A stretch of DNA of 64,000 nucleotides, taken from NCBI GenBank assembly GCA_002327255.1, contig DCUM01000165.1, positions 40,427 to 104,426 on the forward strand, written 5' to 3'. Both the position numbers and the translations under genes were made by a program. The notes beneath the pieces were generated by a model that saw only the letters and a program-made list of their open reading frames with translations, made no database searches and was not told the origin of the DNA. This DNA is from a bacterium UBA2214. GTDB lineage: Bacteria; Zhuqueibacterota; Zhuqueibacteria; Residuimicrobiales; Residuimicrobiaceae. Below, one piece after another: positions 8,591 to 27,521 of this stretch; position 1 is the stretch's first letter; each line of letters starts with the position of its first letter.

Positions 8591-9976
8591 TCAGCCGCTC
8601 AGGCACGCTGCGCAGCGGTTGTGGCCACACCAGCGCTGTTGCAGCTGCAACAGGCCTTGCGCGTGATGACCAGTGAGAACGGGGGCAGGGGTCCGGGTAT
8701 CGAGTTTGAGGCGGCGGTAAACGGCGCGTTGGGTCACACTCTCTTCACCCGCAGGACAGTGGGTATAGAGGGCGCAGGCCCTGGCGCGCAGGTGGCCATC
8801 TTCACATTCACCGGCATAGGCGGCGAGGATGGGCAGCAGGACATTGATGACGAGGTTTCGGCTGCGTGCCGGGCCGACCAGGCAGGCGCAACGACCTGGC
8901 GTGCGTGAAACCGCCCGGCGGCCAAAGTGATAATGGGTACACCAGTAACCCCGCGCCTCAACGCGTCCTATCTCTGTCAGAGCGCGCAGCGCATTGGCCG
9001 GATCAGATGAACGTTTGCTGATTCCCAGTAGCGGATGCAAAAAACCGCTTTCGCGATAGCGTACCGCCAGGGCTGCCGCGGCCGCCAGTCGCCGCGTCGG
9101 GAAATTATTGGGCCGCAGGCGGAAGAACTGCCAGCACTCCGGCTCCAGGACATCGATCTTGCCGCGGTCGCGCCACTGCGCGAACAGATGCGCCAGGCGT
9201 GCCGGATAGGAGGGTGTACCATGGACAGAGGTTTGCGTGCTCTCTTCCAGCAAGCCCGCCGCACCAAACAGGAGGGCCTCGCAAAGCTCCACAGCCGGAT
9301 CGTCCGCCATCGTTGCGACCGCCTGCCACAGCAGCGTCACAGGCAGGACGAAAGCGAGGCGGCGGAAAGGCAACCCGTTTTTGCCATAGCCCAAACCCGA
9401 CAAAAGACCATAATAGAGTATCTGCTCCCAGCTGTGATCCGGCCGCAGTTCGAGAAAACTGGCCTGGTGCTGCTCGAAGCGTTCCCCGCCGCGGCGCGCC
9501 AATTGCGCCATGATAAAAGGCGTCTCCCGTTCCGAGAGGGCGCATGAAAAAGACGACGACGCGCTCTCATCCGGGGACGTGGTATCAGGCCGCCAATCCG
9601 GCAGACTCAACGTCAAAGCCACCGAACCATCCTGGCGCTGCGTGACGTAATCGGGGGGACAAGATTTGAAGACCAGATGCAGAAGGACCTGATTATAGCG
9701 GCGGTCGAGATGGTGGTGGTGTGTATACCACTCCCGGGGCGTGTTGTGGATTTCTACGTCGCCGCGATGGAGCGCGCCATCGATGCGCACGAGCGCGTTG
9801 AGGAAATCGGGGCCGGCATCATGATTGCGCGTGCCGCATTCGATGATGTGCAAAATACGTCCATCGCTGCTTGTGAACGCCCGCCTGTGGTCCGCGAGGC
9901 GTTGCCACAAGGTATAAAGGTGCTCTTCGCGCGCCGCTTCGATGCGCTCCATATCATGCTCTCCCGCCGTGACCAT
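8591..9976 (-). CDS. Hypothetical protein, possibly DUF2851 family
   Basis: 461 aa, His-rich motifs (ECGTRNHDAGPDF, EIHNTPREWYTHHHH) and a C-terminal Cys cluster. Family assignment is from memory only. Confidence 0.4.
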   Translation of the reverse strand: MVTAGEHDMERIEAAREEHLYTLWQRLADHRRAFTSSDGRILHIIECGTRNHDAGPDFLNALVRIDGALHRGDVEIHNTPREWYTHHHHLDRRYNQVLLHLVFKSCPPDYVTQRQDGSVALTLSLPDWRPDTTSPDESASSSFSCALSERETPFIMAQLARRGGERFEQHQASFLELRPDHSWEQILYYGLLSGLGYGKNGLPFRRLAFVLPVTLLWQAVATMADDPAVELCEALLFGAAGLLEESTQTSVHGTPSYPARLAHLFAQWRDRGKIDVLEPECWQFFRLRPNNFPTRRLAAAAALAVRYRESGFLHPLLGISKRSSDPANALRALTEIGRVEARGYWCTHYHFGRRAVSRTPGRCACLVGPARSRNLVINVLLPILAAYAGECEDGHLRARACALYTHCPAGEESVTQRAVYRRLKLDTRTPAPVLTGHHAQGLLQLQQRWCGHNRCAACLSG

Positions 9977-9995: not shown

Positions 9996-10307
9996 TCACG
10001 AGATCGGCGGCGCCGGGGCTGGCGGAATTTTTTCAGCCTCCCTGGCCGCCAACTGCTCATCCAGAGCCTGTATTTTTTTGAACAACTCCTGCACTTCCGG
10101 ATCTTCGGCGATGGGGACATCGGGATGGTGCGACAGCAATTCAAAGGTGCGCCCGCCCAATTCGTAAAACAATCGTTCAATTTCCCGTTTGAGGCCGAGG
10201 ACATCGATATGGTGTCGAATGTTTTTGCCCATCATGCCGGTTTTCTCGACAACCAGCGTGACGCTTTCCCGCAAGCCTTTGTGTAATTCACCAAACAGCG
10301 AAGCCAT
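9996..10307 (-). CDS. Small hypothetical coiled-coil protein (phasin-like?)
   Basis: About 104 aa from MASLFGELHKGL, charged and helical. No recognisable catalytic motif. Confidence 0.35.
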   Translation of the reverse strand: MASLFGELHKGLRESVTLVVEKTGMMGKNIRHHIDVLGLKREIERLFYELGGRTFELLSHHPDVPIAEDPEVQELFKKIQALDEQLAAREAEKIPPAPAPPIS

Positions 10308-10329
10308 CACCCTGCTCCTCAATGCAAAC

Positions 10330-12561
10330 TCAATTTCCCGACAGAAGGCAAACCTTCTCTACGGTGTGTTTTGATCCATAAACAAATTCAATAAAATAGA
10401 GGCCACTCGCGACGGTATCATGCCGGGCGTCTCTGCCATTCCACAGGATGGGGTATCTGCCCGCCGTCGCCTCACCCTGATACAGCGTACGCAGCTTCTG
10501 TCCCATTGTGTTGTAAACCGTTATGGTCAGCCGCTGCGCGGATGTCGAGGTCACCGGAATCTCATAATCGATATTGGTTGAATAGCGGAAGGGATTGGGA
10601 TAGGGCCGCGAAACGCGAAAAGCGATGGGCGGCTGGTCATCGGGATCTTCCGGCAACTCTTCAAGCCGAAGGAGGGCAGCGGCGGCGCAATTGATCTTGC
10701 CATAGCCCCATTGATCCTTTTTGGCGCCGCCCTGAGCCCTCGCCGTGTAGATCAGTGCCTGTTTGATGCGCGAGGCGGGCGCCTCGGGATATTTTTCCAG
10801 CAGCAGGGCGACGGTGCCGCTGACGTGGGGCGCGGCCATGCTCGTCCCCAGAGACAAGGCATGCACGCCATCGGGCAGCACAAAGGCATTGGGATAGGAG
10901 ACATCCGGCGAGTTGAAGATGCTGTAATACCCCCCGGGCCTGGCCTCCTGCGACAGCGAGCTGCCGATGATGCGGCCCGGCGCGGTGATTTCGGGTTTGA
11001 TGCGGTCATCACGGCTCGGTCCGGCCCCGGAAAATTCGGCGACCTCGCCGATGATGATAGTACCCTGCGTATCGATGGTCAAATTGTTGCCGTCCAGATC
11101 CTTCCAGGTCTCGCGCGTGGTGTAGGCACCCACCGTGATCGCACTTTTACTCGTGCCCGGGATGGTTAATGACATGCGATCGCTGACGCCCGTCTTGAAA
11201 ACCGCCTCCATACTCACGCTCGCCAGCCAAAAGTGCACCTCGCCGGCGCGGCCGCTCAATTTGACGGTCCATTCTCCCGCGTACGGCAAAACCCCCAGGT
11301 CATCACAGACTTCGATGATGATTTCCTTATCCTGGTTGAAGGGACTGACGCCCGGCTGGATATCGCTGCCCTCTTCGTAATAACCATTCCAGATCAGTAC
11401 CTGGCCATCGCTGCTGTTGCGGCCGAGATATTTGCCGTCGTTGACGGGTCCAAAGGTCTCGCCGCGCGGCGAGATGACCGTCACACTGAGCGAATGCGTG
11501 CCATCATACCAGCCGTCGAGTACAAAATGATCGTTGCCGGAACCGGCGTTGGGCGTATACTCCGGCACGGAGACGGAGATCTGGGCGCTGGAGGAGGTCA
11601 GCGAGGCCTGGGCGTGCGTCTTTTTGCCGCCTTCATTGCCGGCGGCGACGACCACGACGCGACCCGGCCCGGAGAGATCATCGATGTAACGCTCCACCGC
11701 GGTGGTACCGTCATGGGCGCCGAAATTGGTGCCAAAGCTCAGGTTGACGACGCAGGGCATGCCGAGCAGGGTGGCGACGCTGTCGATGAAGCTGATGGCG
11801 AGCAGCTGGTCGGTGCTGCTGAATTCCGACTTTAAGGCATTGCGGGTGGCCTTGACGGCAATCAGATTCGCCTGCGGCGCCACACCCGCAAAGGCGCCAT
11901 ATTCCGCGCCGCCGCCGCCGTTCCCTGCGGCGATGCCGGCGACGTGGGAACCGTGGCCGCTGTTATCTTTTTGCAACACCATCGGGTTTCCCGACAGCGC
12001 CGTATTGATCTGCGCCTCGTTATAGACCGTGCCCCCGTAATAGGAGCCGGGCGTGCTGAAATCGAGGATGTATTTGATGCGCGTTGCGCCATCCGCCGTA
12101 CGAAAATCGGGATGGGTGTAATCGATGCCGGAATCGACGATGCCGATGAGGACGTTTTTGCCGCTGAGGCCGGTTTGATCGCGCGCCTGCAGGGCGCCGA
12201 TCTCTTTCATGCTGATGTCCGCGACCGGCGTGGCGATCTGGCTGGCTTCGAGATAGCGCAAGCCGGGCACGTTCAGCAGAGCGTCCAGTTTGTCCACCGC
12301 CATGGTGACAATGGCCAGCTCGCCGCGCTGCCAGCGGATTTTTCCGCCCTGCGCTTCCATGTCGCGGCGGTGAAAGACGCCGGAGGCGATGACATCCACA
12401 GAGTGGCTGGCAGACTGTCTGGCCAGTGCCTCCGCATTCTGTTGTTTAAACCGCATCATGCCAAGGGATGCATCCATGCGCGCTGTTTGCGCCCATGATA
12501 CCCCGCACAGGGCCAGCATCATCATCATGAGCACTCGCCCAAAACGTTTCCCGGTCATCAC
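10330..12561 (-). CDS. Secreted S8 (subtilisin-family) serine peptidase with a T9SS C-terminal sorting domain
   Basis: Signal peptide. Asp block IGIVDSGIDYTHPDF, His block SGHGSHVAGIAAG, Ser block GTSMAAPHVSG. C-terminal ~80 aa (ITVYNTMGQKLRTLYQGE...SGLYFIEF) resembles a type-A Por secretion CTD. Confidence 0.8.
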   Translation of the reverse strand: MMTGKRFGRVLMMMMLALCGVSWAQTARMDASLGMMRFKQQNAEALARQSASHSVDVIASGVFHRRDMEAQGGKIRWQRGELAIVTMAVDKLDALLNVPGLRYLEASQIATPVADISMKEIGALQARDQTGLSGKNVLIGIVDSGIDYTHPDFRTADGATRIKYILDFSTPGSYYGGTVYNEAQINTALSGNPMVLQKDNSGHGSHVAGIAAGNGGGGAEYGAFAGVAPQANLIAVKATRNALKSEFSSTDQLLAISFIDSVATLLGMPCVVNLSFGTNFGAHDGTTAVERYIDDLSGPGRVVVVAAGNEGGKKTHAQASLTSSSAQISVSVPEYTPNAGSGNDHFVLDGWYDGTHSLSVTVISPRGETFGPVNDGKYLGRNSSDGQVLIWNGYYEEGSDIQPGVSPFNQDKEIIIEVCDDLGVLPYAGEWTVKLSGRAGEVHFWLASVSMEAVFKTGVSDRMSLTIPGTSKSAITVGAYTTRETWKDLDGNNLTIDTQGTIIIGEVAEFSGAGPSRDDRIKPEITAPGRIIGSSLSQEARPGGYYSIFNSPDVSYPNAFVLPDGVHALSLGTSMAAPHVSGTVALLLEKYPEAPASRIKQALIYTARAQGGAKKDQWGYGKINCAAAALLRLEELPEDPDDQPPIAFRVSRPYPNPFRYSTNIDYEIPVTSTSAQRLTITVYNTMGQKLRTLYQGEATAGRYPILWNGRDARHDTVASGLYFIEFVYGSKHTVEKVCLLSGN

Positions 12562-12614: not shown

Positions 12615-14027
12615 TCATTCTACATTCGATATGCCGCGATGGATTTCCAGCAATTCCTGCCAGTTGGGATTATAGTTCTCGCCGCGCATGGTGCTGTGCA
12701 CCAGCGTATAGGTACCCTGATTTTTGAGATCGATGAAGACAAAGTTCACGCCTCCCTGAATCGCATCGTACGTCCAGATTTGATAGCCCCTGCCGGTGCT
12801 GCTGGAAGGATAACGATCGATATCGGAAGGGATGCCATAGAGCATGGCGGCGCGGCCGCGGTCTGTCTTCCAGCCGGCGGAACCCTCCCTGAAATTGCTG
12901 TTGGCATATTCCGCGCGCTGCAGATACTCCTGACGGAATTCATTGAGCGGCGTGCCGGGGTCGGGGTCGCGCAGCCGCCAGAACATGCTCAAAAAGGAAC
13001 GCATCGCCCTGGTGGTGTTGAGCTGGGCCAGCAGTTTTTGCGTCTCCCGGTCCGCCAGGTAATGGATGTACCGGATTTCGCGGGCGACCTGGACCGAATC
13101 GAGAGCCTCATAGAATGCCACGCCGCGCGCCGTCTCCGGATCGCTTTCGCTCTCCGTCGGGGTATAGGATGGATGGGAGAAATAAAAACGTTTCCGGGTA
13201 TAGGTGACGCGCGTCTCCCCGGAATCGGCGACCGCAAAATAGAGCCAGTACCAGCCGCTCGGCAGCGGGGTGAGAGGCACCCATCCCACTTCGATCATGG
13301 TGTCGCCCGACCTGGGGCGCAAGCGCTTTTTTTCGGGAATCTTTTCAATTTTATACCCATTGTCGTCGCCGAGCCAATAGAGTATCTGGTAATGGTGGTG
13401 TGCGATGTTTTCCGCGAGATTGTACAACTCGACGTAAAACCACAGCATGCTGGACGCTTCCGAGTAGTAGCGCGCGATATTGGGCGTCACTTCGATATTG
13501 TTTTTGATGAGCACCGGACTCGATGAGGCGTCGGCATTTTGTATTTTGGTGCAGAGCACCAGATCGCTGAGTGCGAGCGCGTCTCCCGCGATGGCTTCAT
13601 TCCTGATCGGCATCACGACGCTGTCCGCATGGGTGCCGGACGGGTCGGTGACTCTGATCCTGGCCTGGTAATCCCCGGGCACCAGCGTATAGCGCAGCAG
13701 ATCGATGCGGTTCTGTTGCTGCCACGAGGTATCCTTTTTCGAGAAGAGCATGCGCCAGCGTTTTTGATCGATGGGCGCATCCTCCTTTTCCAGAGTGAAA
13801 TCGATCACCAGCGAGCAGACGCTATCCGCCGCGGCCGTGGAAAAGAGTTCCCACTTGAGCGGATTGATGTTGTAAAAAATCTCGACATTGGTTTCCGTGG
13901 CAGTGCCGCGGAAACGGGCATAATCAGTCTGAACAATGGCTGTCTCCTCCGCATGGAGGACAAAGCAGAGACTGATTAGTGAGATAATGAGAAGGGCCCG
14001 GAACTGGTACATGATCGATCCTTTCAA
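12615..14027 (-). CDS. GWxTD domain-containing secreted protein
   Basis: 470 aa with a signal peptide and the eponymous motif NFREGSAGWKTDRGRAAMLYG near the C-terminus. Confidence 0.7.
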   Translation of the reverse strand: MKGSIMYQFRALLIISLISLCFVLHAEETAIVQTDYARFRGTATETNVEIFYNINPLKWELFSTAAADSVCSLVIDFTLEKEDAPIDQKRWRMLFSKKDTSWQQQNRIDLLRYTLVPGDYQARIRVTDPSGTHADSVVMPIRNEAIAGDALALSDLVLCTKIQNADASSSPVLIKNNIEVTPNIARYYSEASSMLWFYVELYNLAENIAHHHYQILYWLGDDNGYKIEKIPEKKRLRPRSGDTMIEVGWVPLTPLPSGWYWLYFAVADSGETRVTYTRKRFYFSHPSYTPTESESDPETARGVAFYEALDSVQVAREIRYIHYLADRETQKLLAQLNTTRAMRSFLSMFWRLRDPDPGTPLNEFRQEYLQRAEYANSNFREGSAGWKTDRGRAAMLYGIPSDIDRYPSSSTGRGYQIWTYDAIQGGVNFVFIDLKNQGTYTLVHSTMRGENYNPNWQELLEIHRGISNVE

Positions 14028-14190
14028 TGGTGCACGGTCGTGCCGAAATGACTTGCCTATAATGTAATAAATAAATAATCATGAAGCAAAAGAAAAAGCC
14101 GGAGCGGCCAGGCGTGTGCGGATGAAGCGGTGAGGCGCGCGGAGAAAAGAGGTTCGGCGGTGTTAATGGCAGAGCTCTCTTTCAGTAAAC

Positions 14191-14223
14191 AAAAAGCGGG
14201 TGGCCGAGGAGCAGCCACCCGCT
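14191..14223 (-). terminator. Rho-independent terminator after the PorV-like barrel gene
   Basis: Plus strand AAAAAGCGGGTGGCcgaggagcaGCCACCCGC. On the minus strand this is a 9-bp GC stem followed by TTTTT. Confidence 0.55.
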
Positions 14224-14245
14224 GTGATCAGAAAGTCCGTGCAGA

Positions 14246-15286
14246 TCAGAAGCCGATCTTCACCGTGAACATCTGATTGCTGTCAAAGACTTCGACGAAG
14301 CGGTAGGCGTAATCGAGGGTCAGATCGATGCCGCCCATATCCTTGTGGAAACCGGCGCCGAAGCTCGGTCCGTAGATATAGTCCCAGCCATCCGGTACAT
14401 CCATGCCCATGGTGTAGCCACCGCGCAGGAAGACCATATTTCTGAAACTGTACTCCAGACCCATCTTGTTGTCGTCGAATGAAAAGTTATTGTTCTGGAA
14501 CATGTAAGAACCCGTGATGGTGCCCATTTCGCCAAAGTCGTGCGTATAGGCAAGGCCGATCTCGAGCGCCGAAGGAAGTTCAAAGCTCGCCGGATCGACT
14601 TTCAGGCTGGTGCTGGGACGCGCACCATCATCCATTTTGCCCTGGCCGGTCAAACCGGAACCATCATAGGTCATGTTGCCGCCGAGGTTGCGCAAGGCCA
14701 TACCGAAACTGAGTCCATTGATGCCGGCGAAATTGACGTATTGCACACCGACATCCACGGCCAGCGTGCTGGCGCCGACGCGTTTGATTTCTTCATGGAC
14801 CAGATTCACATTGACGCCGAAAGAGACGTTATCGGTGAGGCCTTTGGCATAGGTCACGCCGAGGGTGAAGAAACTCGGCGAGAACATCATGCCCGTGCCA
14901 TCGGGATTGTCGGCCGTGGTGACTTCGATGTCACCGATGGACATGGCTTTCAATCCGAAACCGAGATGGCCGAAACCACCCAGATTGGCGTCTACTGCCA
15001 CGGTGTTCACACTCATATCGGCAATGTAGCCCATATGGGTGAACATGGCGGTGGCTGCAGCGTCCGAACGGGCCAGACCCGCCGGGTTCCAGTAGATGGC
15101 CTCTACGCCGGTGGCCGTAGCGGTCATTGCGCCGCCCATGGCTAAGCCCCGGGCGCCGACCGGAATGAGCAGTTGCGGCGCCGAGGACGTTCCCACGCGA
15201 TCATTTCCGCCGGCGAATCCCGCTGAACTGGCCAGCAGAGTGAAAGCCATGAGGAGAGCGAAAACTCGGAATACTGTTCGCATCAT
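14246..15286 (-). CDS. PorV/PorQ-family (FadL-like) outer-membrane beta-barrel protein
   Basis: 346 aa, signal peptide, N-terminal LLIPVGARGLAMGGAMTATATGVEAIYWNPAGLA typical of PorV/PorQ/FadL-like barrels. Alternating-residue strands and an aromatic C-terminal residue (F). Confidence 0.6.
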   Translation of the reverse strand: MMRTVFRVFALLMAFTLLASSAGFAGGNDRVGTSSAPQLLIPVGARGLAMGGAMTATATGVEAIYWNPAGLARSDAAATAMFTHMGYIADMSVNTVAVDANLGGFGHLGFGLKAMSIGDIEVTTADNPDGTGMMFSPSFFTLGVTYAKGLTDNVSFGVNVNLVHEEIKRVGASTLAVDVGVQYVNFAGINGLSFGMALRNLGGNMTYDGSGLTGQGKMDDGARPSTSLKVDPASFELPSALEIGLAYTHDFGEMGTITGSYMFQNNNFSFDDNKMGLEYSFRNMVFLRGGYTMGMDVPDGWDYIYGPSFGAGFHKDMGGIDLTLDYAYRFVEVFDSNQMFTVKIGF

Positions 15287-15328
15287 ATTATTAAAGCTCC
15301 TATTTTTTTGTCGTTCATCGCCGGGTTA

Positions 15329-18300
15329 TCAATAGACTTCGATGAATTCTTGCTCGCGCACCAGGGCGACTTTGATGATTTTGGCCTTGGCGATCTTGGG
15401 CATGTCGATGTGAGCGATATAGATGCCGCTCGCCACCGGCAGATTGTTGTGGTTGGTCAGGTCCCAGCGCAGGAATTGGGTAGGATCTTCCTTTTCCAGG
15501 ACTTTGACCAGGCTGCCGGCCAGATCAAATATCTTCACGGTCGCATATTGGGGCATGTGGTTGAACGTCACGAAGCGGTTGACCGGATTGGTTTCGCGCG
15601 GATTAAAGCCGTAGTAGGGATTCGGGAAGACCTTAATCGCTTCGATATCCGTACCCGCGACGCTGGCAGTATAGGTGCTCGCCTTGGTGCTGAATTTGAA
15701 GACATCAGCCGCCGTGTTCGGGAGTTTCGCCAAAAAGCGGAACTGGTCACCCGCTTTGGGGGCCGCACTGGGGCCGCGGCGCGCCGCCAGGCTCCAGTAC
15801 ATCACCGGATAGTCACCGTCGAGCAGTGAAGTCATCAGGGCCGGTTTGCTATCCGCCGTGTATACGGTCTCAAAGATCCACAGCCATTCGCGCGGGCCGG
15901 CCGAAGCGGTGTTGCTGCCTGCCGGTGCCGCGAGCGTATAATCGGGCGGCCAGTACTTGCCGTCCACCAGACCGGCGGCGACGTTGTTCTCCATGAAACC
16001 GATATCGAGCTGCTTGCCGGTGACTTCATCGATGGCGACGAACGGAACGACGCGGCGATCCTGAAACACCCACCCGGGTGAGGGGTTGACGATGAACGGG
16101 GCGAATTCGGGTTTGGCCGGAGCCGATGTGGCCGCACGCAGATAGCGGTAAGCCATGGACGAATTGGGATCGTTGGGATTCTTGAGATTGCCCTGGGCAT
16201 CCGTCTCGGCGAACTTTAGCAGGACGGGATGAATCTCACTGGCGACACTGCCCAGGCCCCAGAAATCGGTGTATTCAAAGCCGTCGCACATGGCGCCATT
16301 GAATTGGCTCAAGCCGTAATCACCGGCACCTCCGGCCCAGGTCCACCAGCGGTTGGCAGCCGGTATGGCTTCCCATCCCGCCATGCCGGGCAATGAGCCG
16401 TATTCCTGCACGACCACACCGTTGAAGACGGGGCTGTTGGCGCCAAAGGTGGCCGGATCTTCATAGACTTCCTGAAAGATCGCCTTGTTCGCCGTGGCGT
16501 TGTAGAGCGACCAGAAGGTACTGTCGTTGCGCACCTTGAAATAGACTTCGTAATTGGCGTCAATGGTTTTGGTGGGATCCACCACCGTGGCGATGATTTC
16601 ACCATTGGAAGGTCCGACATGTTCCACTTCGAGAACCTCGCCATCGACGTGCATGTAGCGCACGCCGGGGTTGGGCGATTGCGGCACGGCTTTGAGGACC
16701 ACCGGGGTGCTTTCCAGCGCATGCACCGGCACTTCGGGATCGCCGTTATTGTTGTAGGCGGTGACCACGAAAAAGTACTCGGTGCCGTTCACCAGCGGTT
16801 TGCCGGTGAAGACGTCCTGGGTGATCACGAACGAACGGGAAAGACCCGTGTTGGTGCCGAACTTGACCGGTTTGTTGACGATGTAGCCGCTCGATGGATC
16901 AAACTGCAGGTCAAAGATGGTCGAGACCAGGTTATCGACATCGATGGTGGCCAGACGCCTTCCTTCGCTCAGCTGGGCGCTGGCGCTGGGCAGCTGATAG
17001 ACCACATACCCTTCGAAATGGTACCCCAAAAAGTTCTGGGTCTCGATCTCGTTGAGCAGCTCGTGATCTTCGCCCCAGTTGAGGACGATCTTTTGGTTGA
17101 GTTCGGCGACATGCACCTTGGGGGAGGGCGGCGCCACGGGGAGCACGAAAAAGTTATCGTACGCTGATTGTGCCGAGATGTCGTTGAACTTCATCACCGC
17201 CACGCTCGACTGACGGTCGCCGCCGAGGCCGAATACCGCGGCCACAACGACTTCCTGGGTATCACCATAGGCCAGCTTGAAGGGTCCGGTGATCATCTGC
17301 ATGCGGCGGTCGCCGGGGGTGAGGATGACGCCGTCGAGATCGCCGGTGCCCTGTACCGGATCGCCGGCCAGCGGGAAGCGGGTCGGATTGCCCTTGCCGT
17401 CAGTAAAAGCACTGGTGCCGGCCGGGATCAGTCCGTTCATCATGTTGTACCACTGCCGCGTGCCGTCATAGACGCCCTGGGGCGGATCGGTGATGGACGA
17501 ACCGGCGGCGAAATAGTTGAAGGCGCTCATCTTCAGGTTTTTGTAGCCATGGCGCAGCGTGCCGTTGAAAATGGCGACATCGTCCGGATTGCCGGTGGGG
17601 ACAATGGGGCCCTGGAGAAAGTCGTAGCCGCCGGCAGGCGGTGGCAACTCGAACTTGTCATAGTTGAGATCGCGCGCGTTGGCGTTGTAGACAAAGGAGA
17701 GGGCCAGCGTCGTATCGCAGCCGACGAAATCGTCGCCCGCTTCTCCGAGATCAGGGTCAGACCACGCCGCGAAGAAGCAGCTGTCGACATAGGCGTTGGT
17801 GGGGGTGTTTGACATGCCTTTGTACATCACCTTGTACTTTTTGAAGGCGACGTTGCCCAGCGCATCGGTGCGCTTGTAACCCCACAGGGTCACCTGCATC
17901 TCGATGCCGATGGGTTCGGAACCATAGAAATAACGGGTCTGGGCGGCACTGAGATCATTGACCACATACCAGATCATCTGATCGGCGCCCAACTCACCGG
18001 GTTCCTCGATTTCACCGGGGAAATCGATCTTGCCGTTGCCATTCAAATCCTGGGAGTACCCCAGATCGAGTCTGCCGTTGCCGTTGACATCATAGAACGG
18101 CGCGCCCTTCTGCCAGGGCCATTCGAACCAGTCTTTCTCGTACTGTGCCCGGATGGCGTCCACCTGGCCCGCGGTGACGGAAGAGAGGTTGGTTTCGTTA
18201 TATTCGGCGGCGTCCTGCACCAGGTCCGCTGTTTTGTAATCGCGGCGGATACGCCAGATGCGAACATCGGCCGCGTTTGGATTTTCCGCAACGCCCGGGC

Positions 18301-18652
18301 TGAGGATAGCGCCTGGCGTCAAACCGGTACGGTAAGCAGAACCACCCACGCGCAATTCCGGGGTCATGCCGTCTTTCACCATACCGCCCCACAGCAAGCC
18401 GGATTCATAGATCACCGCTGCGGTGAGACGGGGGAAGAAGGCGCCGGATTGACCGGACGGAGCCAGGGCGCCGTTGCCGGTATTGCGCATCCAGTAGGTC
18501 ACGTTATTGATGTTGAGCAACGTAATAACCGGACTGCCCGACGTTTTTTGCAGGGCAGCTTGCCTGTCCTGATCGTTTTTGGCCCAGGTCGCGGAGGAAA
18601 ACAACACCAGGGCCAACCCGGTAATTAATAGAACATATGCAAATTTTCTCAT
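15329..18652 (-). CDS. Large (1107 aa) secreted protein of unknown function with a T9SS type-A C-terminal sorting domain
   Basis: Signal peptide MRKFAYVLLITGLALVLFSSATWA. Repeated beta-rich segments. C-terminus YATVKIFDLAGSLVKVLEKED...WDLTNHNNLPVASGIYIAHIDMP matches the T9SS CTD pattern. No catalytic motif recognised. Confidence 0.7.
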   Translation of the reverse strand: MRKFAYVLLITGLALVLFSSATWAKNDQDRQAALQKTSGSPVITLLNINNVTYWMRNTGNGALAPSGQSGAFFPRLTAAVIYESGLLWGGMVKDGMTPELRVGGSAYRTGLTPGAILSPGVAENPNAADVRIWRIRRDYKTADLVQDAAEYNETNLSSVTAGQVDAIRAQYEKDWFEWPWQKGAPFYDVNGNGRLDLGYSQDLNGNGKIDFPGEIEEPGELGADQMIWYVVNDLSAAQTRYFYGSEPIGIEMQVTLWGYKRTDALGNVAFKKYKVMYKGMSNTPTNAYVDSCFFAAWSDPDLGEAGDDFVGCDTTLALSFVYNANARDLNYDKFELPPPAGGYDFLQGPIVPTGNPDDVAIFNGTLRHGYKNLKMSAFNYFAAGSSITDPPQGVYDGTRQWYNMMNGLIPAGTSAFTDGKGNPTRFPLAGDPVQGTGDLDGVILTPGDRRMQMITGPFKLAYGDTQEVVVAAVFGLGGDRQSSVAVMKFNDISAQSAYDNFFVLPVAPPSPKVHVAELNQKIVLNWGEDHELLNEIETQNFLGYHFEGYVVYQLPSASAQLSEGRRLATIDVDNLVSTIFDLQFDPSSGYIVNKPVKFGTNTGLSRSFVITQDVFTGKPLVNGTEYFFVVTAYNNNGDPEVPVHALESTPVVLKAVPQSPNPGVRYMHVDGEVLEVEHVGPSNGEIIATVVDPTKTIDANYEVYFKVRNDSTFWSLYNATANKAIFQEVYEDPATFGANSPVFNGVVVQEYGSLPGMAGWEAIPAANRWWTWAGGAGDYGLSQFNGAMCDGFEYTDFWGLGSVASEIHPVLLKFAETDAQGNLKNPNDPNSSMAYRYLRAATSAPAKPEFAPFIVNPSPGWVFQDRRVVPFVAIDEVTGKQLDIGFMENNVAAGLVDGKYWPPDYTLAAPAGSNTASAGPREWLWIFETVYTADSKPALMTSLLDGDYPVMYWSLAARRGPSAAPKAGDQFRFLAKLPNTAADVFKFSTKASTYTASVAGTDIEAIKVFPNPYYGFNPRETNPVNRFVTFNHMPQYATVKIFDLAGSLVKVLEKEDPTQFLRWDLTNHNNLPVASGIYIAHIDMPKIAKAKIIKVALVREQEFIEVY

Positions 18653-18712
18653 AGATGATCAAACCTCCAGTTTTAGAACGTGTAGTCAAAGCCCGTTGCT
18701 GACCACGGTTCC

Positions 18713-21700
18713 TTAGTAGTTGATGTACAGACCGACTCGGATCTCGCGCGGCTGTCCCCAAAGATCACCGGGATAACCCGCGATGGTCCAGTTTTGACCA
18801 TTCAGATCGTTAAATTTCTGCAACATCATCTTGTAGCCCGAACCGGTTTCAGAGGCGAGTTTCAGGCCGCTGAGGGATGGATCCGCCAAAAAGCCGTCGA
18901 TGTCCGAACCGGTGCGCGGCCAGACGTTGAGGATATTTTTGGTGTTGAGCAGGTTCTGGGCATAGATGTAGACATTGACGTCAAATTTGCCGATGGAGAT
19001 GGTCTTGTCCAGGCGGCCGTCGAGATAGAAGGTCCACGGCGTCATCGAAGAGCCGATGGGCTCGAGCGGACGGCGGGAGCGGGCATCGGAACCGTTGCCG
19101 GCTGCGCCGGACTGGGCATCGACCTGTCCAAGAGCGCCACCGCTGAGCGTGTAGGGGTGTCCGCTGCTGAACTTGAAGAGCAGATTGAGGCCGAGTCTCT
19201 CGAGGATCGGGCCGCCATCATCCTTGTCAAAGCGGTAATCGAGGTTGATGTTGCCGCTGTGGGGATGGTTGAAATAGGTCGGCGTGATGATCGTGATCTG
19301 ACGGGTTCCCTGATCCAGGGCCGCACTGCTTTGGTTGACATACGAACCGGTGCCGCGGGCGGTCTGGTAGGTATAGTTCACCCAGCCCATGACGCGGTTG
19401 ACGCGGCGCATGGTGTAGCGGAACTCGACGCCCTTGGAGGTCGAGAATCCACCATTGGTGGTGATGTCATAGGGCTGTACGCCCGACTCGGGAGACGTGA
19501 AGACACGCTGCGTCTGGAGTTGATCCTTGATGTCCTTGTAGAAGAGGGTGACATCGAAGGAGGCGTTGTCGGCGAATTGCTGATTGAATCCCACTTCGTA
19601 GGAGGTGGTGCGTTCCGGATCGATGCGGAAGGCGAACGGGTTGGTGAAAAAGTTACCCGAGGCGCCGATATTCATGGCGCGGTTCCACATCGAGCGGTAG
19701 ACCTGCGTCATCTGCGGCATCATGATGTACTTGCCCCACTGGAAGTGGAACTTGGTGCGATCGGTGACCGGGAAGGAGAAGCCCAGTCGCGGACTGACCG
19801 TGACAGACGCTTTCACTTTGTCATAAGCAGATTCCATCAACACGTTGTTCTGGCGATCGTAGCCGGGGTTGGTGTAATCCTTCGGTTCCCAGGTCTGCAT
19901 GTCATAATAGTCCAGACGCAGGCCCGAGTTGATCACCAGGTCCTTGTATTCATAGATATCATGCAAATAAGCGGCGCCGATGAGCGGATGGGGGGTCTTG
20001 TTGAAGAAGGGACCGCCGTCGGTCTCCTTGCCGAAGACGTCATAGCCGTAGATATTGGGCGCCAAAGAGATGAAGTACTGCTCCAGGGCGGCCGGATTCA
20101 GCAGGATGCCCGGATTGTTGCGCAGATAGAGATGAGAGCTGGCCGTTGTCGGCGCTGCGTAACTGCGCATGGTCCAGTACTGCATTTCACCGCCGAAGGT
20201 GAGGTTGTGGCGGTTGGTTTTCACCGTAAAGTCGAGGTTACCGCCGACATAGGAACGCTTGAAATAATTCAGCGAAGTGATCCAGGGACGTTCGGGGGCG
20301 GCAAAGGCGAAATCATAGATGCTGAGGGCGTAAGCCGGCTGAGCGTAACGGGCAAATGCGTTCGGGAAGCCCGCTTTGGCCTGCGCCAGGCTGTCGACAT
20401 AGGACCAGGCATCATCCTTGAAAAGGGGATCGTAGCTCTTGCCGCGGAAACCGCTGTGCGCCAGGCTCAGGGTATAGAAGGCGTTGGGCGAGAGGAAATG
20501 GGTCATCTTGGTGGTCAGCGTCATCTGGCTCTGCTCGTTGATGGAGCTGCGTTCGCGGCGCAGGAGGTTCGACAGCGGATCGCCGTTGCCGGACCAGCGG
20601 ATGTAGGAGCCGATGGCCGAGCCGCGCAGGGTGATGGATTTGCTCAGGTCATAGGTGAGGACGCCATTGTAATTGTAGCGGTTGCGCTGGTTGTTCCACG
20701 GGATGATACCGCCTTTCCAGTCCAGCACCTGCACGGTATCGCCATTGCCACCGAGCAGACCGGAATCCACCAGCTGCATGATCTGGCCGTCTTGGAGCAC
20801 GGTCTTGTTGTGTTCCAGCGTGAAGGGTTCCCAGAAGTTGCGGCTCTGGTCGCGGTCAAAGCGGTTTTCGCCCGCCACAAAGAATTTTACCTTCTTGTTG
20901 GTGTAGGGCACGGGGCCGCTGGCGGTGAGCACATAATCGGAATAACCATAGGAATAGGTGTCGAGGAATTTCTCACCCGGAGTGGCGAGCTGGTCGGTCT
21001 CGAGGCGGAGGCTGAAGCGGTAATCCGGCGTGCCGCTCTTGAGCACCGAAGCGATGATACCGCCGCTGGCGCCGCCGTACTGGGCGGTATAACCACCGGC
21101 CTGCATCTGCACTTCTTCCAGGGCTTCCGGAATCACCGTGGCCATGTTGCTGGCGCTGGAAATGCCAAAAGCGCCCGAAGAACCGACGACGTCGCGGGTA
21201 TTGACGCCTTCGACGTAATAGCCGACCGCGTCGCCGCGGCTGCCGCGGATGTAGTAGACGCCATCCTGCGTGACCACGCCGGGATTGAGCGCTGCGGCGG
21301 CGGTGACGCCACGGATGGGCAGGTTTTCAATCTGTTCCGTATTGAGAATACGGGTGGTATTGGTCGAGGTCTTTTCGATCAGGGGGCGTTCACCGATGAT
21401 GGTGATCTCCTGCCCCTGCAGCACCGAGGGCGTCATGTTGACGGTGACGCGTTCGGTCAGACCGATGCGAACACGAATGTTCTCGATTCTCATGGTGGCA
21501 TACCCGACAAAAGTCGCCTGCAGGGTATAGACGCCGACCGGGATGTTCTGGATATAGAACTCTCCGTTCACATCGCTGGCAGCGCCATAGGTGGTGCCCA
21601 CGAGCAACACATTGGTGCCAGGCAACGGCTCACCCGTTTCTTTGTCCTTGACAACACCCGAGATTCGTCCCGATGTGGTCTGGGCGAACCCGGGAATGGT

Positions 21701-21763
21701 GAGCATATAGAGCATGACAATTGCCAAGACGGCCGATAATAGAAAATGACGATGTCGAAACAT
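18713..21763 (-). CDS. TonB-dependent outer-membrane receptor (SusC/RagA-like) with an N-terminal carboxypeptidase-regulatory-like domain
   Basis: 1016 aa. Signal peptide, then SGRISGVVKDKETGEPLPGTNVLLVGTTYGAASDVNGEFYIQNIP (CarboxypepD_reg), a plug region, a long barrel, and a terminal ...RVGLYINY aromatic C-terminus. Confidence 0.85.
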   Translation of the reverse strand: MFRHRHFLLSAVLAIVMLYMLTIPGFAQTTSGRISGVVKDKETGEPLPGTNVLLVGTTYGAASDVNGEFYIQNIPVGVYTLQATFVGYATMRIENIRVRIGLTERVTVNMTPSVLQGQEITIIGERPLIEKTSTNTTRILNTEQIENLPIRGVTAAAALNPGVVTQDGVYYIRGSRGDAVGYYVEGVNTRDVVGSSGAFGISSASNMATVIPEALEEVQMQAGGYTAQYGGASGGIIASVLKSGTPDYRFSLRLETDQLATPGEKFLDTYSYGYSDYVLTASGPVPYTNKKVKFFVAGENRFDRDQSRNFWEPFTLEHNKTVLQDGQIMQLVDSGLLGGNGDTVQVLDWKGGIIPWNNQRNRYNYNGVLTYDLSKSITLRGSAIGSYIRWSGNGDPLSNLLRRERSSINEQSQMTLTTKMTHFLSPNAFYTLSLAHSGFRGKSYDPLFKDDAWSYVDSLAQAKAGFPNAFARYAQPAYALSIYDFAFAAPERPWITSLNYFKRSYVGGNLDFTVKTNRHNLTFGGEMQYWTMRSYAAPTTASSHLYLRNNPGILLNPAALEQYFISLAPNIYGYDVFGKETDGGPFFNKTPHPLIGAAYLHDIYEYKDLVINSGLRLDYYDMQTWEPKDYTNPGYDRQNNVLMESAYDKVKASVTVSPRLGFSFPVTDRTKFHFQWGKYIMMPQMTQVYRSMWNRAMNIGASGNFFTNPFAFRIDPERTTSYEVGFNQQFADNASFDVTLFYKDIKDQLQTQRVFTSPESGVQPYDITTNGGFSTSKGVEFRYTMRRVNRVMGWVNYTYQTARGTGSYVNQSSAALDQGTRQITIITPTYFNHPHSGNINLDYRFDKDDGGPILERLGLNLLFKFSSGHPYTLSGGALGQVDAQSGAAGNGSDARSRRPLEPIGSSMTPWTFYLDGRLDKTISIGKFDVNVYIYAQNLLNTKNILNVWPRTGSDIDGFLADPSLSGLKLASETGSGYKMMLQKFNDLNGQNWTIAGYPGDLWGQPREIRVGLYINY

Positions 21764-21787
21764 TTATTCCTCCATCTCCACGAATAA

Positions 21788-22480
21788 TTAGTCAATGTAG
21801 AATTTTTGGGCTGATAGCGAAGCCTTGGGATTGTAGAGAACCACCAGATTGCCCGCTCCAGCTACGGGAGAAATCTCCATTTTGTACCATTCGTTGTTGG
21901 CGCTATCCAGGAAGCGAACCGTATAGTTGTAACCGGTTCCGGGGAAATGCTTGCCCACGGTCCTGGCAAAGGCCAAAGAGGCGCTGAGGGTTTCCGTGGT
22001 GGTGGAACCGTCAGCCGTTTTGGTTTTGACTAGGTCGACTTTGAAGGATGCGTCTGGACACATCTGGGCGACAAAGATGGCCATCTGGTCCGATGGCACC
22101 GGTTTGTACAACAGATGTTCCTGGAGTCTGAGGAACCGGCTGCTGTTGGCCGCATTCTTGGTGGCGACGAAATAGGTGCCCTGGAAATCGGTGGTGACCG
22201 CCAGGGTATCAGCGGCTTCGGAACCGGCCTGAAAAGCATATCTACCAGCGTTGACGGTCTGGTAATTCGTGCCTTTTCCCGGCGCCAAAGTGCCCACACT
22301 CTTTCCATCGAATTTCACGTCCAAGCTGCCCAGGTCAGCTGCCGTATTGATGATACGAACCTTTGCCTTGAGGACCGGCATGTTAATCCCGTCGGTCGGA
22401 ATTTGCACGCAGCTTACGACAAAGATCATAAGCAGGCAAGCCGAACCGATCAGGAGTAACCTTTTCAAGCTTGATTTCAT
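21788..22480 (-). CDS. DUF4397-like lipoprotein, putative surface partner of the TonB-dependent receptor
   Basis: 230 aa, lipoprotein signal (LLMIFVVSC), repeated RxxN beta segments (VRIINTAADLGSLDV...). Immediately upstream of, and co-oriented with, the receptor gene. Confidence 0.5.
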   Translation of the reverse strand: MKSSLKRLLLIGSACLLMIFVVSCVQIPTDGINMPVLKAKVRIINTAADLGSLDVKFDGKSVGTLAPGKGTNYQTVNAGRYAFQAGSEAADTLAVTTDFQGTYFVATKNAANSSRFLRLQEHLLYKPVPSDQMAIFVAQMCPDASFKVDLVKTKTADGSTTTETLSASLAFARTVGKHFPGTGYNYTVRFLDSANNEWYKMEISPVAGAGNLVVLYNPKASLSAQKFYID

Positions 22481-23203
22481 AATCTCTTACTCTCCTCAAA
22501 TTCGTTCACTTTCTGTTCTTGAAAGGAAAACTGGCCGATGAACTCATGCGGCGTGATTTGTGAAACCTTTCACCTTCTGGTGCGTAAAACAGTCATAAAA
22601 GGTTCGATGTGTGTGACCTCCTCTTTTTTATACCTCTGGCTTGATTAAGGTTGCGTTGGTTGAACTGTCCCAATAAAAAGCATTCCTGCATATCCATGCG
22701 GGGCTTCCCATACCCATCAGCTGCACAATGATGGCAAAAACCGCATTTTCATGCAGTCGAATGTTGAATTCAATTTGATTATTTTATGATGTAAACAACT
22801 TGAGACGGGAAATTGAGCACGATCATCAGCAACACATTGACGCATGCGTTAATCCTCTTTTCCATTCAACGACCATGAATGAGAATAAGGCTTCTAGCCT
22901 GACACCTTATGGGGCCAAAATTTTCTTTTAAAAAAGTGCTGAAACGCAAATAACCGGTCAATTGGTGACAACTTTCTACTCTTTTGGGGCCATGGGAAAT
23001 CAAGATGGTTTAATTACTGCAATTACAATTAATTATAGACAGGCTGCAAATTGAAGTGCCAAAGCAATAATTATTAGTATGTTGAGGTATATATTTTAGC
23101 CAAATAAAATAATAACCTGCTCGATACCGCCCAATATAAACAAATTTGAACTCGCCGTCAAGTTTTTTTTCTCGTTTTCGTCATTAATCTTCATAACTTT
23201 ACT
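22481..23203 (-). promoter_or_regulatory. About 720 bp AT-rich non-coding leader with a candidate sigma70-type promoter
   Basis: GC drops to roughly 38 %. No ORF of 60 aa or more. On the minus strand, TTGACG-17 nt-TATATT (about 23120-23150) reads toward the DUF4397 gene. An 8-bp direct repeat TGGGGCCA occurs at about 22906 and 22985. A GGAGAG RBS precedes the ATG at 22480. Confidence 0.4.
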
Positions 23204-27289: not shown

Positions 27290-27438
27290 GCGTTGATCCT
27301 TTATATGGTTGAGTGCATCCGTTTCAAGACCATCCCGAACACATCCCGTCGAAAAAAAATCGCCGGATGCCAGTTGGACGCATACGACGACAGGATTGAA
27401 CCGTCAACGGCATCGGCCGGCGCCACGACGGGATGGGG

Positions 27439-27521
27439 TGCGAGAGGGGGGACTCGAACCCCCAAGTCCTTGGGACACCAGATCCTAAGTCTGGCGCGTC
27501 TGCCAATTCCGCCACTCTCGC
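27439..27521 (-). tRNA. tRNA-Leu (anticodon TAG), long variable arm
   Basis: Reverse complement folds as a cloverleaf: acceptor GCGAGAG/CTCTCGC, D-arm GCG-GAATTGGCAGA-CGC, anticodon stem CCAGA/TCTGG with loop CTTAGGA (anticodon TAG), a 14-nt variable arm, T-arm GGGGG-TTCGAGT-CCCCC, discriminator A. Confidence 0.8.

Follow-up and report, generated by a model that had tools for sequence, protein, structure and literature searches.

How a bacterium might hold a large secreted protein at its surface next to an outer-membrane transporter is the question raised by a gene cluster of bacterium UBA2214, in which a TonB-dependent transporter (TBDT), a 1107-aa secreted protein of an unmodelled family and a barrel of the PorV/PorQ family are encoded one after the other. 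We analysed this cluster within a window of 64,000 nt (DCUM01000165.1, positions 40,427-104,426), to whose positions all coordinates below refer, and compared it with related loci.

Gene content and transcription unit

Six genes lie in one orientation, all on the minus strand. In the direction of transcription they encode a DUF4397 lipoprotein, the TBDT, the large protein, the barrel and then, beyond a terminator, a GWxTD-domain protein and an S8 protease:

21788..22480, minus strand: DUF4397 lipoprotein, 230 aa, first gene of the operon (PF14344 33.7 bits, cutoff 30.6)
18713..21763, minus strand: TBDT, 1016 aa (CarboxypepD_reg, Plug and barrel matches)
15329..18652, minus strand: large secreted surface protein, 1107 aa, central to the cassette, family without a model (its C-terminal domain, CTD, is the sole family match)
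14246..15286, minus strand: PorV/PorQ-family outer-membrane barrel, 346 aa (NF033709 174 bits, cutoff 90)
14186..14223, minus strand: intrinsic terminator, end of the operon (12-bp stem with 9 G-C, 5-nt loop, TTTTTGTTT tail)
12615..14027, minus strand: GWxTD-domain protein, 470 aa, likely start ATG at 14012 (TIGR04514 94 bits)
10330..12561, minus strand: S8 subtilase with a type A T9SS CTD, 743 aa (Peptidase_S8 144.6 bits; TIGR04183 27.2 bits, above cutoff)

An earlier note on this DNA had also described six co-oriented genes; the common strand is confirmed, but the span it gave them holds only five, the S8 gene lying outside. The DUF4397 protein begins with a signal peptide ending in FVVSC, which is lipobox-like.

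The genes from DUF4397 to TBDT, large protein and barrel are separated by 24, 60 and 42 bp, and a gap of 218 bp follows the barrel gene. There, 23 nt past the barrel gene's stop codon, the terminator stem occupies 14223-14195 on the minus strand and is followed by TTTTTGTTT. No other strong hairpin lies on the minus strand of the region; the remaining terminator-like matches have stems of 5-7 bp and lie mostly within coding sequence. A terminator-like hairpin was found 3' of the barrel gene at 37 of 59 related loci, compared with 14 of 295 control windows. Given the short gaps, the strong terminator and the recurrence of the hairpin in relatives, the single transcript from lipoprotein to barrel that had been suggested earlier is likely, and the GWxTD gene is probably transcribed separately from the cassette. 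No riboswitch or other known RNA element was found in the 720-bp leader.

The type A CTD of the neighbouring S8 protease is bona fide, which indicates that T9SS-type sorting signals are in use in UBA2214. No core T9SS genes were seen within the 64-kb window, so it is the CTD of the large protein and the barrel that argue for T9SS dependence of the cassette.

Conservation of the cassette

The unit that recurs elsewhere is TBDT, large protein and barrel, which is smaller and more general than the four-gene system proposed earlier. A TBDT lies directly upstream of the large-protein gene at 51 of 55 evaluable related loci, and a PorV-like barrel gene directly downstream at 57 of 61, with median gaps of 31 and 35 bp, respectively. 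The earlier note had allowed that its gene order might not be kept in relatives; the order of receptor, large protein and barrel is. Its fourth member fared differently: the DUF4397 lipoprotein, which it saw as paired with the receptor in place of a SusD, is present in the window but lies directly upstream of the TBDT at only 7 of 46 loci in one count and 9 of 47 in another, and is an accessory outside the conserved core. The GWxTD gene is a frequent, non-obligatory downstream neighbour (adjoining the cassette at 8 of 48 loci, within 8 kb downstream at 17 of 48), and an S8 gene follows the cassette in close relatives only, with a strong match at a single locus (L015) and weak ones at two others (L058 and L068). 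All three are lineage-specific neighbours.

Cassettes were found in MAGs of Ignavibacteriota, KSB1, Latescibacteria and Marinimicrobia and in others labelled Calditrichota, and the flanking genes are unrelated between the Melioribacter, KSB1, Latescibacteria and Marinimicrobia cassettes. This recurrence in dozens of independent contigs takes the arrangement far beyond chance. Some contigs carry two divergent cassettes (L024; L013 with L051; L055 with L070). Flanks consist mostly of housekeeping or envelope genes, unlike those of polysaccharide utilisation loci: a PIG-L-domain protein is encoded downstream at 11 of 53 loci, and LPS or envelope genes flank others (Lip_A_acyltrans and Glyco_transf_9 at L003; Epimerase_2 and GT4 at L004). 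Nothing in the neighbourhoods surveyed tied the cassette consistently to a substrate, a regulator, a degradative enzyme such as a glycoside hydrolase or lyase, or an inner-membrane transporter.

The three cassette proteins

The large protein has a signal peptide, and Pfam and NCBIfam searches found no domain or family in it except the T9SS CTD. More than 1800 homologues align over the full length at about 45% identity, and the family comprises 3433 clusters at 50% identity (E<=1e-30). An AlphaFold model (pLDDT 87.5) and profile searches divide it as follows:

17153..18532, minus strand: beta-supersandwich, residues ~41-500 (match to the galactose-mutarotase-like fold)
16673..17125, minus strand: two Ig/FN3-like beta-sandwiches, residues ~510-660 (secondary structure of the model; Foldseek matches to FNIII arrays)
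15638..16672, minus strand: subfamily-variable C-terminal module, residues ~661-1005 (AlphaFold model)
15332..15637, minus strand: T9SS CTD of ~100 aa, residues ~1006-1107, type-A-like (nearest to the CTDs that PorZ and PorU retain)

Conservation within the protein is highest in the supersandwich, which in the model resembles the N-domains of glycoside hydrolases and galactose mutarotase and contains an acidic, calcium-site-like loop, DxDxG..D..GxD (D299-D313). This fold occurs in carbohydrate-active enzymes and mutarotases, and also in proteins that do not bind sugars, such as the periplasmic domain of YidC. Within the variable module a beta domain of ~95 aa is like the outer domains of FlgK, FlgL and flagellin, and the other ~250 aa have no solved relative. 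Between subfamilies the module in the middle is swapped while residues 1 to about 710-770 and the CTD are kept, and their genes still occupy cassettes between a TBDT and a barrel. Together with the two-cassette contigs, these swapped modules form the pattern expected of substrate-specialised paralogues. The earlier note had seen no recognisable catalytic domain and had pointed to CBM-, FN3- or peptidase-like folds as candidates; Ig/FN3-like domains are indeed present, and neither domain search nor structure comparison revealed a catalytic domain.

The type A CTD model TIGR04183 (cutoff 23 bits) scored 21.0 bits, below cutoff, when the full-length protein was scanned and 24.7 bits with its last 130 aa alone. 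For 78 homologues, PorZ, PorU and CTD-type models were compared with isolated 130-aa C-termini, so that a PorU match refers to the CTD region only: all 78 matched PorZ, 75 matched type A (E<=0.01) and 47 matched the PorU CTD. The type B model TIGR04131 matched neither the window protein nor any of the 78 homologue CTDs at E<=0.01. Judged by these profiles, the type A assignment proposed earlier is marginal for the window protein and clear for the family. The PorZ C-terminus matched the window CTD at 37.8 bits, and the top PDB match of the large protein in Foldseek was PorZ (5m11), with 6za2 also among the top matches. The protein is not itself PorZ (NF052228), as only model positions 664-757, within the CTD, align (31.8-37.8 bits against a cutoff of 260) and no propeller is seen in the AlphaFold model; nor is it the PorU sortase (NF033707), as Peptidase_C25 has no match. 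CTDs processed by PorU measure 67-88 aa, and the retained ones of PorZ and PorU 96 and 108 aa (PMC11285876). PorZ, which keeps its CTD, is anchored on the surface by PorQ, independently of PorV (PMC10947112). Its likeness to these retained domains suggests that the CTD of the large protein is probably left uncleaved as well.

At 346 aa the barrel has the length of PorQ. It scored 173.9 bits against the PorV/PorQ family model NF033709 (residues 33-346 on model positions 1-326) and 44 bits against PF19572 (PorV, cutoff 27), and it matched the PorV structure 6h3i with an E of 5e-9. Scores for the PorV (NF033710, 73.5 bits), PorQ (NF033711, 77 bits) and PorV2 (NF052325, 77.9 bits) equivalogs fall below the cutoffs of 250, 220 and 325 bits, and we therefore regard it as a separate subfamily. 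The PorV/PorQ-like identity given in the earlier note thus stands, and the generic FadL transporter that it held open as an alternative does not: PF03349 (FadL/Toluene_X) had no match in the window protein and a faint precomputed one in a single homologue. Two of its readings need revision. It took a dedicated barrel beside a type A CTD cargo to fall outside the usual pairing of PorP/SprF with type B cargo, but PorZ held by PorQ is a precedent (PMC10947112); and it called the barrel a shuttle, whereas the PorZ/PorU-like, retained type of CTD and the anchoring of PorZ by PorQ make an anchor more likely.

Behind a signal peptide, the window TBDT carries an N-terminal CarboxypepD_reg extension (residues 34-121; PF13620 and PF13715, 64-65 bits), a Plug (PF07715, residues 132-235, 33.9 bits against a cutoff of 23.9) and a barrel that NCBIfam TBDT models match at residues 595-813 (E 2e-6). 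Between extension and plug lies the conserved stretch QEITIIGERP (consensus V.IVAERP), which is TonB-box-like by motif resemblance only. All 31 cassette TBDTs compared have the CarbD extension, 29 the Plug, 12 a PF00593 match and 8 a match to the Oar-like barrel PF25183, for which the window protein has none at E<=0.01. The family profile matched the structures of PhuR (barrel, E 1e-10), the RagA N-terminal extension and the Cir plug. SusC/RagA membership was rejected, as TIGR04056 scored 71 bits against a cutoff of 368 and aligned with no more than the extension and the first part of the plug. By its predicted domains, extension, plug and barrel, the architecture is Oar-type.

Proposed function and alternatives

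We lean, tentatively and at not quite an even call, towards a three-gene outer-membrane module (of four genes here, with DUF4397) in which a T9SS-exported, barrel-held surface protein captures a ligand for import by the TBDT. The 1107-aa protein would be exported by Sec and then taken out by the T9SS. Its CTD would probably stay in place, as in PorZ and PorU, and be bound by the co-encoded barrel, which would keep the protein at the surface as PorQ does PorZ. Placed beside the co-encoded TBDT, it would capture a ligand outside the cell and pass this on to its partner for TonB-energised import. The galactose-mutarotase-like supersandwich and the subfamily-variable module suggest that this ligand is probably a glycan or glycoconjugate. 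The large protein may thus be a functional analogue of SusD, or of the surface glycan-binding lipoproteins that accompany SusC, tethered by T9SS parts and not by a lipid anchor. The CarbD extension, the conserved TonB-box-like V.IVAERP motif, the plug and the barrel would give the TBDT what TonB-dependent gating requires. Against the proposal, ~45% identity over 1100 aa across phyla is unusually high for a nutrient-binding protein, and TBDTs of Oar-type architecture can also act in export, Oar being an example (PMC6434023). Counting against it too are the mostly housekeeping or envelope flanks with no consistently linked degradative or regulatory gene, a leader devoid of known RNA elements, the lack of core T9SS genes in the window and the occurrence of the supersandwich in proteins that do not bind sugars.

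Several known systems share parts of this arrangement. Closest to the passenger and barrel are PorQ-PorZ and PorV-PorU of the Porphyromonas gingivalis T9SS attachment complex, where a T9SS-exported surface protein likewise keeps a long CTD (PMC10947112, PMC11285876); the cassette CTD best matches PorZ and PorU, and the barrel shares their partners' family. The cassette passenger, however, has neither two beta-propellers nor a C25 peptidase but a supersandwich, Ig domains and a novel module, its gene and the barrel's are adjacent, likely co-transcribed and near-always coupled to a TBDT, the barrel is below the PorQ and PorV equivalog cutoffs, and the hosts lie outside cultured Bacteroidota. With SusC/SusD (RagA/RagB) of Bacteroidota the cassette has in common a TBDT with a CarboxypepD_reg extension, a likely co-transcribed large extracellular partner in which no catalytic domain is recognisable, and paralogous copies with variable binding modules. 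It differs in that its TBDT is not a SusC/RagA, its partner is a T9SS-type CTD protein and not a TPR lipoprotein, its tether would be a third protein, the barrel, and no linked CAZymes or regulators were found around it. Type B cargo of Flavobacterium johnsoniae and P. gingivalis is also linked to a dedicated outer-membrane partner, a PorP/SprF-like protein that sets its final location (PMC12618676, PMC9143113), but the cassette has a type-A-like CTD, a PorV/PorQ-family barrel and a TBDT in the unit. Oar of Myxococcus xanthus shares the order of CarboxypepD_reg extension, plug and barrel, has a TonB box where the cassette TBDTs have a TonB-box-like stretch, and is functionally tied to a secreted protein; its sequence similarity to the cassette TBDTs is low, and a CTD-carrying partner or PorV-like barrel for it was not found in the available text (PMC6434023). 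In the Bacteroidota BAM complex, BamG, a FadL-family barrel of 14 strands, keeps the surface-exposed BamH beside a larger barrel (PMC12578637), but BamG is a FadL/Toluene_X homologue and BamH a lipoprotein, both unrelated to the cassette proteins, and the larger barrel is BamA, not a TBDT.

The kinship of the CTD with PorZ and PorU, both in the 78 homologues and in the Foldseek matches, and a barrel that is PorQ-like in length and family would also suit a T9SS accessory module, with large protein and barrel as the counterpart of PorZ-PorQ or PorU-PorV in FCB phyla outside Bacteroidota. In that case the supersandwich would help to attach cargo or to maintain the envelope by binding LPS or a glycan of the surface, and the TBDT-like barrel would contribute structure or energy. 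Conservation as high as this across phyla would befit a core machine, and LPS, envelope or PIG-L genes lie beside some cassettes. We consider this improbable, as homology to PorZ and PorU is confined to the CTD, module-swapped paralogues in the same lineages and contigs are unexpected for a single core machine, and the published accounts that we found describe the attachment complex (PorU, PorV, PorQ, PorZ) without a TBDT. We also give little credence to export, in which the TBDT would move cargo outward, like Oar with the protease PopC in Myxococcus, or might even translocate or assemble the adjacent large protein while the barrel receives its CTD, as a self-contained secretion and anchoring unit. 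Such a role would be in keeping with the Oar-subclass architecture (PMC6434023), the PF25183 matches, the strictness with which the TBDT accompanies a secreted protein and neighbourhoods devoid of nutrient-processing genes. However, a folded protein of 120 kDa does not fit through a 22-strand barrel with a plug, the large protein already bears the signal of an established exporter, UBA2214 encodes other CTD proteins, and Oar is the only instance of TBDT-mediated protein export that we found in the literature.

An extracellular protein that is all-beta, multi-domain and rich in Ig/FN3 folds, with a module like the outer domain of flagellin and a calcium-site-like loop, highly conserved and encoded in housekeeping contexts, might instead be an abundant coat, adhesin or S-layer-like component on a barrel tether, the TBDT being co-expressed or a second membrane foot. 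This seems quite improbable, leaving unexplained both the near-obligatory TBDT, with its TonB-box-like stretch and plug, and the swapping of middle modules between subfamilies. That the genes form no functional unit, and share only chance adjacency or outer-membrane regulation, is effectively refuted by an order and orientation kept in >90% of evaluable loci from several phyla, by gaps of 31-35 bp, by the conserved terminator after the third gene and by the unrelated flanks. Beyond the capture-and-import module that we favour lies a broader and more doubtful proposal, that FCB phyla outside cultured Bacteroidota possess an unrecognised class of machine, in which a retained CTD and a PorQ-like barrel were co-opted to mount a modular ligand-capture protein on a TBDT as an evolutionarily independent, non-lipoprotein answer to the SusCD problem. 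The same doubt takes in a radical version, in which Oar-type TBDT, CTD protein and barrel would make up a self-contained secretion and anchoring unit without a canonical T9SS translocon.

The phyla Ignavibacteriota, KSB1, Calditrichota, Latescibacteria and Marinimicrobia occur in abundance in sediments, aquifers and oceans, and the cultured Melioribacter, Ignavibacterium and Caldithrix are members of cassette-carrying phyla. To our knowledge, very little is known about how these five phyla acquire substrates at their surface. We found no published description of a cassette of TBDT, large protein and barrel in the literature, and it looks like an undescribed way to pair a surface partner with a membrane transporter. 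As a family of ~1100-aa proteins with no domain model, thousands of clusters and a near-obligatory place between TBDT and barrel, the large protein is a strong candidate for an important surface module that has gone unstudied in these phyla. If the proposed function is correct, barrels would anchor retained CTDs in proteins other than the components of the T9SS itself, TBDTs would have a way of recruiting protein partners that needs no lipoprotein, and researchers of the T9SS and of TBDTs would have a tractable three-gene system.

Operon layout in the window

The minus strand of the window carries six genes between 22480 and 10330:

21788-22480, minus: DUF4397 protein, 230 aa, with a lipobox-like N-terminus (...FVVSC); PF14344 at 33.7 bits (cutoff 30.6)
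18713-21763, minus: TonB-dependent transporter (TBDT), 1016 aa; CarboxypepD_reg at 34-121, Plug at 132-235, TBDT barrel models matching 595-813
15329-18652, minus: large protein, 1107 aa; signal peptide, the sole recognisable feature being a C-terminal T9SS sorting domain (CTD)
14246-15286, minus: PorV/PorQ-family barrel, 346 aa; NF033709 at 173.9 bits (cutoff 90), PDB PorV 6h3i at E 5e-9
12615-14027, minus: GWxTD protein, 470 aa; TIGR04514 at 94 bits
10330-12561, minus: S8 subtilase with a type A CTD, 743 aa; TIGR04183 at 27.2 bits

The shared orientation of all six genes and their domain calls agree with the earlier note; the range it gave for them, 12615-22480, leaves the S8 gene outside. 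Gaps of 24, 60 and 42 bp separate the first four genes. The 218-bp gap 3' of the barrel gene contains a hairpin (14223-14186; 12-bp stem with 9 G-C pairs, then TTTTTGTTT), the region's sole strong minus-strand terminator, which bears out the note's placement of a terminator after the barrel. In the window's lineage the operon comprises four genes, encoding the DUF4397 protein, the TBDT, the large protein and the barrel.

The 720-bp intergenic region 5' of the DUF4397 gene (22481-23203) is relatively A+T-rich (G+C about 0.50 vs 0.57 for the window) and includes a sigma-70-like site at 23161-23133. We searched it for a riboswitch or leader RNA as a clue to the substrate, and Rfam returned no match at gathering thresholds or at E<=1; 720 bp is long for a leader. 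Downstream of the S8 gene, the same strand holds a small ORF of about 103-108 aa without a domain, directly adjoining (9996-10322), and a DUF2851 protein gene (8591-9976; 220.8 bits).

Elsewhere in the window, a long surface-polysaccharide biosynthesis cluster (30127-63959, mostly minus strand) encodes several GT4 glycosyltransferases, two Polysacc_synt flippases, a Wzy_C O-antigen ligase/polymerase-like protein, four PMT_2 (ArnT-like) glycosyltransferases, a carbamoyltransferase, an MBOAT acyltransferase and DUF2142. Between it and the cassette stand the housekeeping genes tig, clpP, clpX and ysxC. A 686-aa protein with GHL15 (hypothetical glycosyl hydrolase) and Golvesin_C domains is encoded at 27586-29646, next to a tRNA-Leu (27437-27521).

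Conservation of the three-gene cassette

We inspected neighbourhoods in eight assemblies and 79 metagenome loci. A same-strand CarboxypepD_reg-Plug TBDT lies immediately upstream of the large protein in 51 of 55 evaluable loci and a PorV-like barrel immediately downstream in 57 of 61, with median spacings of 31 and 35 bp, respectively, so the gene order, whose conservation the earlier note had set as a check, is kept in relatives. Terminator-like hairpins were found no more than 125 nt 3' of the barrel gene in 37/59 loci, vs 14/295 control windows placed inside coding sequence. These conservation statistics exclude chance adjacency of the cassette genes. On each of three contigs, two divergent cassettes occur near each other.

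The flanks of the trio vary by lineage. DUF4397 lies upstream in 7/46 loci (9/47 by Pfam), a GWxTD gene is adjacent downstream in 8/48 and within 8 kb downstream in 17/48, and S8 proteases are found near the cassette in close relatives only. Because the flanks vary while the trio is kept, the note's 'composite locus' resolves into a conserved unit, the three-gene cassette, and lineage-specific neighbours, among them the DUF4397, GWxTD and S8 genes that it had counted as members. Neighbour scans of the cassette loci revealed no CAZymes (recurrent glycoside hydrolases included), SusD-like genes or dedicated regulators, leaving a polysaccharide utilisation locus unsupported.

A large protein with a PIG-L domain (GlcNAc deacetylase family) follows the barrel in 11/53 loci, the commonest Pfam match among first downstream neighbours. 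In one clade of related loci, an ORF of about 750-800 aa stands between the PorV-like barrel and GWxTD genes (in locus coordinates, L031:12542-14806, L033:11202-13478, L042:12889-15276, L051:12613-14931 and L073:10329-12731). The PIG-L matches, counted without listing members individually, probably correspond to these ORFs, which suggests that barrel, deacetylase and GWxTD genes are recurrently linked.

The large-protein family and its partners

More than 1800 full-length homologues of the large protein, at about 45% identity, carry the labels Calditrichaeota, KSB1, Ignavibacteriae/Melioribacter, Latescibacteria, Marinimicrobia and, for a few MAGs, 'Bacteroidota'; the closest named homologues come from Calditrichaeota and KSB1 MAGs. 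When 1.84 billion cluster representatives were searched with the profile, 3433 clusters fell in the family at E<=1e-30. No model in Pfam-A (2025) or NCBIfam 20 (2026) covers the protein outside its CTD, and the family profile found nothing significant among PDB sequences beyond a marginal match to the PorZ CTD.

An AlphaFold2 model built from 69 homologues (mean pLDDT 87.5) has a galactose-mutarotase-like beta-supersandwich at residues about 41-500, followed by two Ig/FN3-like sandwiches at about 510-660. FN3-like folds, which the earlier note had proposed to look for in 15329-18652, were thus present; of the peptidase folds it also named, a C25 domain was absent. Most of the invariant residues sit in the N-terminal part, including an acidic DxDxG..D..GxD loop. 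Many members align only at profile positions 1 to about 710-770 and at the CTD; their middle region differs, with a CHRD domain in some cases, and these variants remain inside cassettes with a TBDT and a barrel.

Scanned alone, the final 100 or so residues (INVFPNPYYG...) match TIGR04183 at 24.7 bits, in line with the type A assignment of the earlier note. Among 78 homologue CTDs, the PorZ C-terminus matched 78, type A 75, the PorU C-terminus 47 and type B none. Foldseek with the whole model against the PDB gave PorZ (5m11) as top match, with PorU (6za2) also among the matches. CTDs cleaved by PorU span 67-88 residues; those of PorZ and PorU, which stay uncleaved, have 96 and 108 (PMC11285876). 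Beyond the last CTD strand, the family consensus continues into a short tail (..IIQEQQxLxxY/F; 15332-15360 in the window), whose aromatic end is reminiscent of the outer-membrane-protein C-terminal signal.

Scanning a genome collection with the large protein returned solely a distant CTD protein of the gammaproteobacterium Glaciecola amylolytica (CP034120.1, L001:8264-11131; 955 aa, Por_Secre_tail at 41 bits), which shares 28% identity with residues 262-474. Its adjacent genes include neither a TBDT nor a PorV-like gene, and it is odd for such a T9SS-type tail to occur outside the FCB group. The cassette of one KSB1 MAG is followed by a second CarboxypepD_reg TBDT and, next to it, a large protein cut short by the locus end at 547 aa or more (both within L006:16697-21351). 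This protein faintly matches the end of the supersandwich profile (hhalign probability 67%), a hint that proteins partnering TBDTs form a wider superfamily.

The CarboxypepD_reg N-terminal extension is common to all 31 cassette TBDTs that we examined; a plug could be recognised in 29, while 12 match PF00593 and 8 the Oar-like barrel PF25183. The conserved stretch V.IVAERP, which reads QEITIIGERP in the window, resembles a TonB box in motif and lies at the expected position. The window TBDT scores 71 bits against a TIGR04056 cutoff of 368, ruling out SusC/RagA membership, and its domain layout matches the 'Oar subclass' (PMC6434023). The barrel clearly belongs to the PorV/PorQ family and is about as long as PorQ; since it falls far under the equivalog cutoffs for PorV, PorQ and PorV2, we place it in a separate subfamily. 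Pfam domain calls rule out a generic FadL/Toluene_X identity, the alternative weighed in the earlier note, and its NF033709 score agrees.

Known systems and proposed function

Among known systems, PorZ-PorQ, and not the type B-PorP/SprF pairs named in the earlier note (PMC12618676, PMC9143113), comes closest to the protein-barrel pair. The PorQ barrel anchors PorZ, which retains its CTD, and this sub-complex assembles without PorV or PorU (PMC10947112). With this precedent, the pairing of a type A cargo with a dedicated barrel is less anomalous than the earlier note had held. Similar sizes and gene order also led us to consider a PorU-PorV operon, rejected for lack of a C25 peptidase domain. 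For the whole cassette, SusC/SusD is the closest functional analogy, yet neither membership test places it there.

Starting from the observed conserved operon, folds, CTD type and family memberships, we propose that the large protein would be exported by Sec and directed through the T9SS by its CTD, which would be retained and captured by the co-encoded barrel; so tethered, it might co-operate with the neighbouring TBDT. We tentatively favour, at somewhat under an even chance, ligand capture by the large protein for TonB-driven import, because no element of a gated importer is missing from the TBDT, the large protein's most conserved domain has a carbohydrate-enzyme-associated fold, paralogous cassettes swap the middle module, and the arrangement parallels, by analogy, SusC with its surface partners. 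The uptake interpretation of the earlier note is to this extent partly supported.

Against such import, degradative or regulatory genes are not linked to the cassette, its genomic context is housekeeping and its cross-phylum conservation is unusually high, which leaves room for three other explanations. A role like that of PorZ-PorQ, as a T9SS accessory or in the envelope, to which the CTD matches would be relevant, is unlikely, the passenger being unrelated to PorZ; equally unlikely is Oar-like export, with which the TBDT architecture is compatible. A structural coat or adhesin appears a shade less probable again. Ligand capture for import remains our preferred reading.

Literature searches, including PorV-like plus TonB in Ignavibacteria or T9SS operons, yielded no description of the cassette, nor of GWxTD proteins. 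Altogether, known parts (TBDT, T9SS CTD, PorV/PorQ barrel) are combined around an unmodelled 1100-aa family in an arrangement that is strongly conserved and undescribed; the cassette is real and widespread, seems to be unstudied and can be tested directly.
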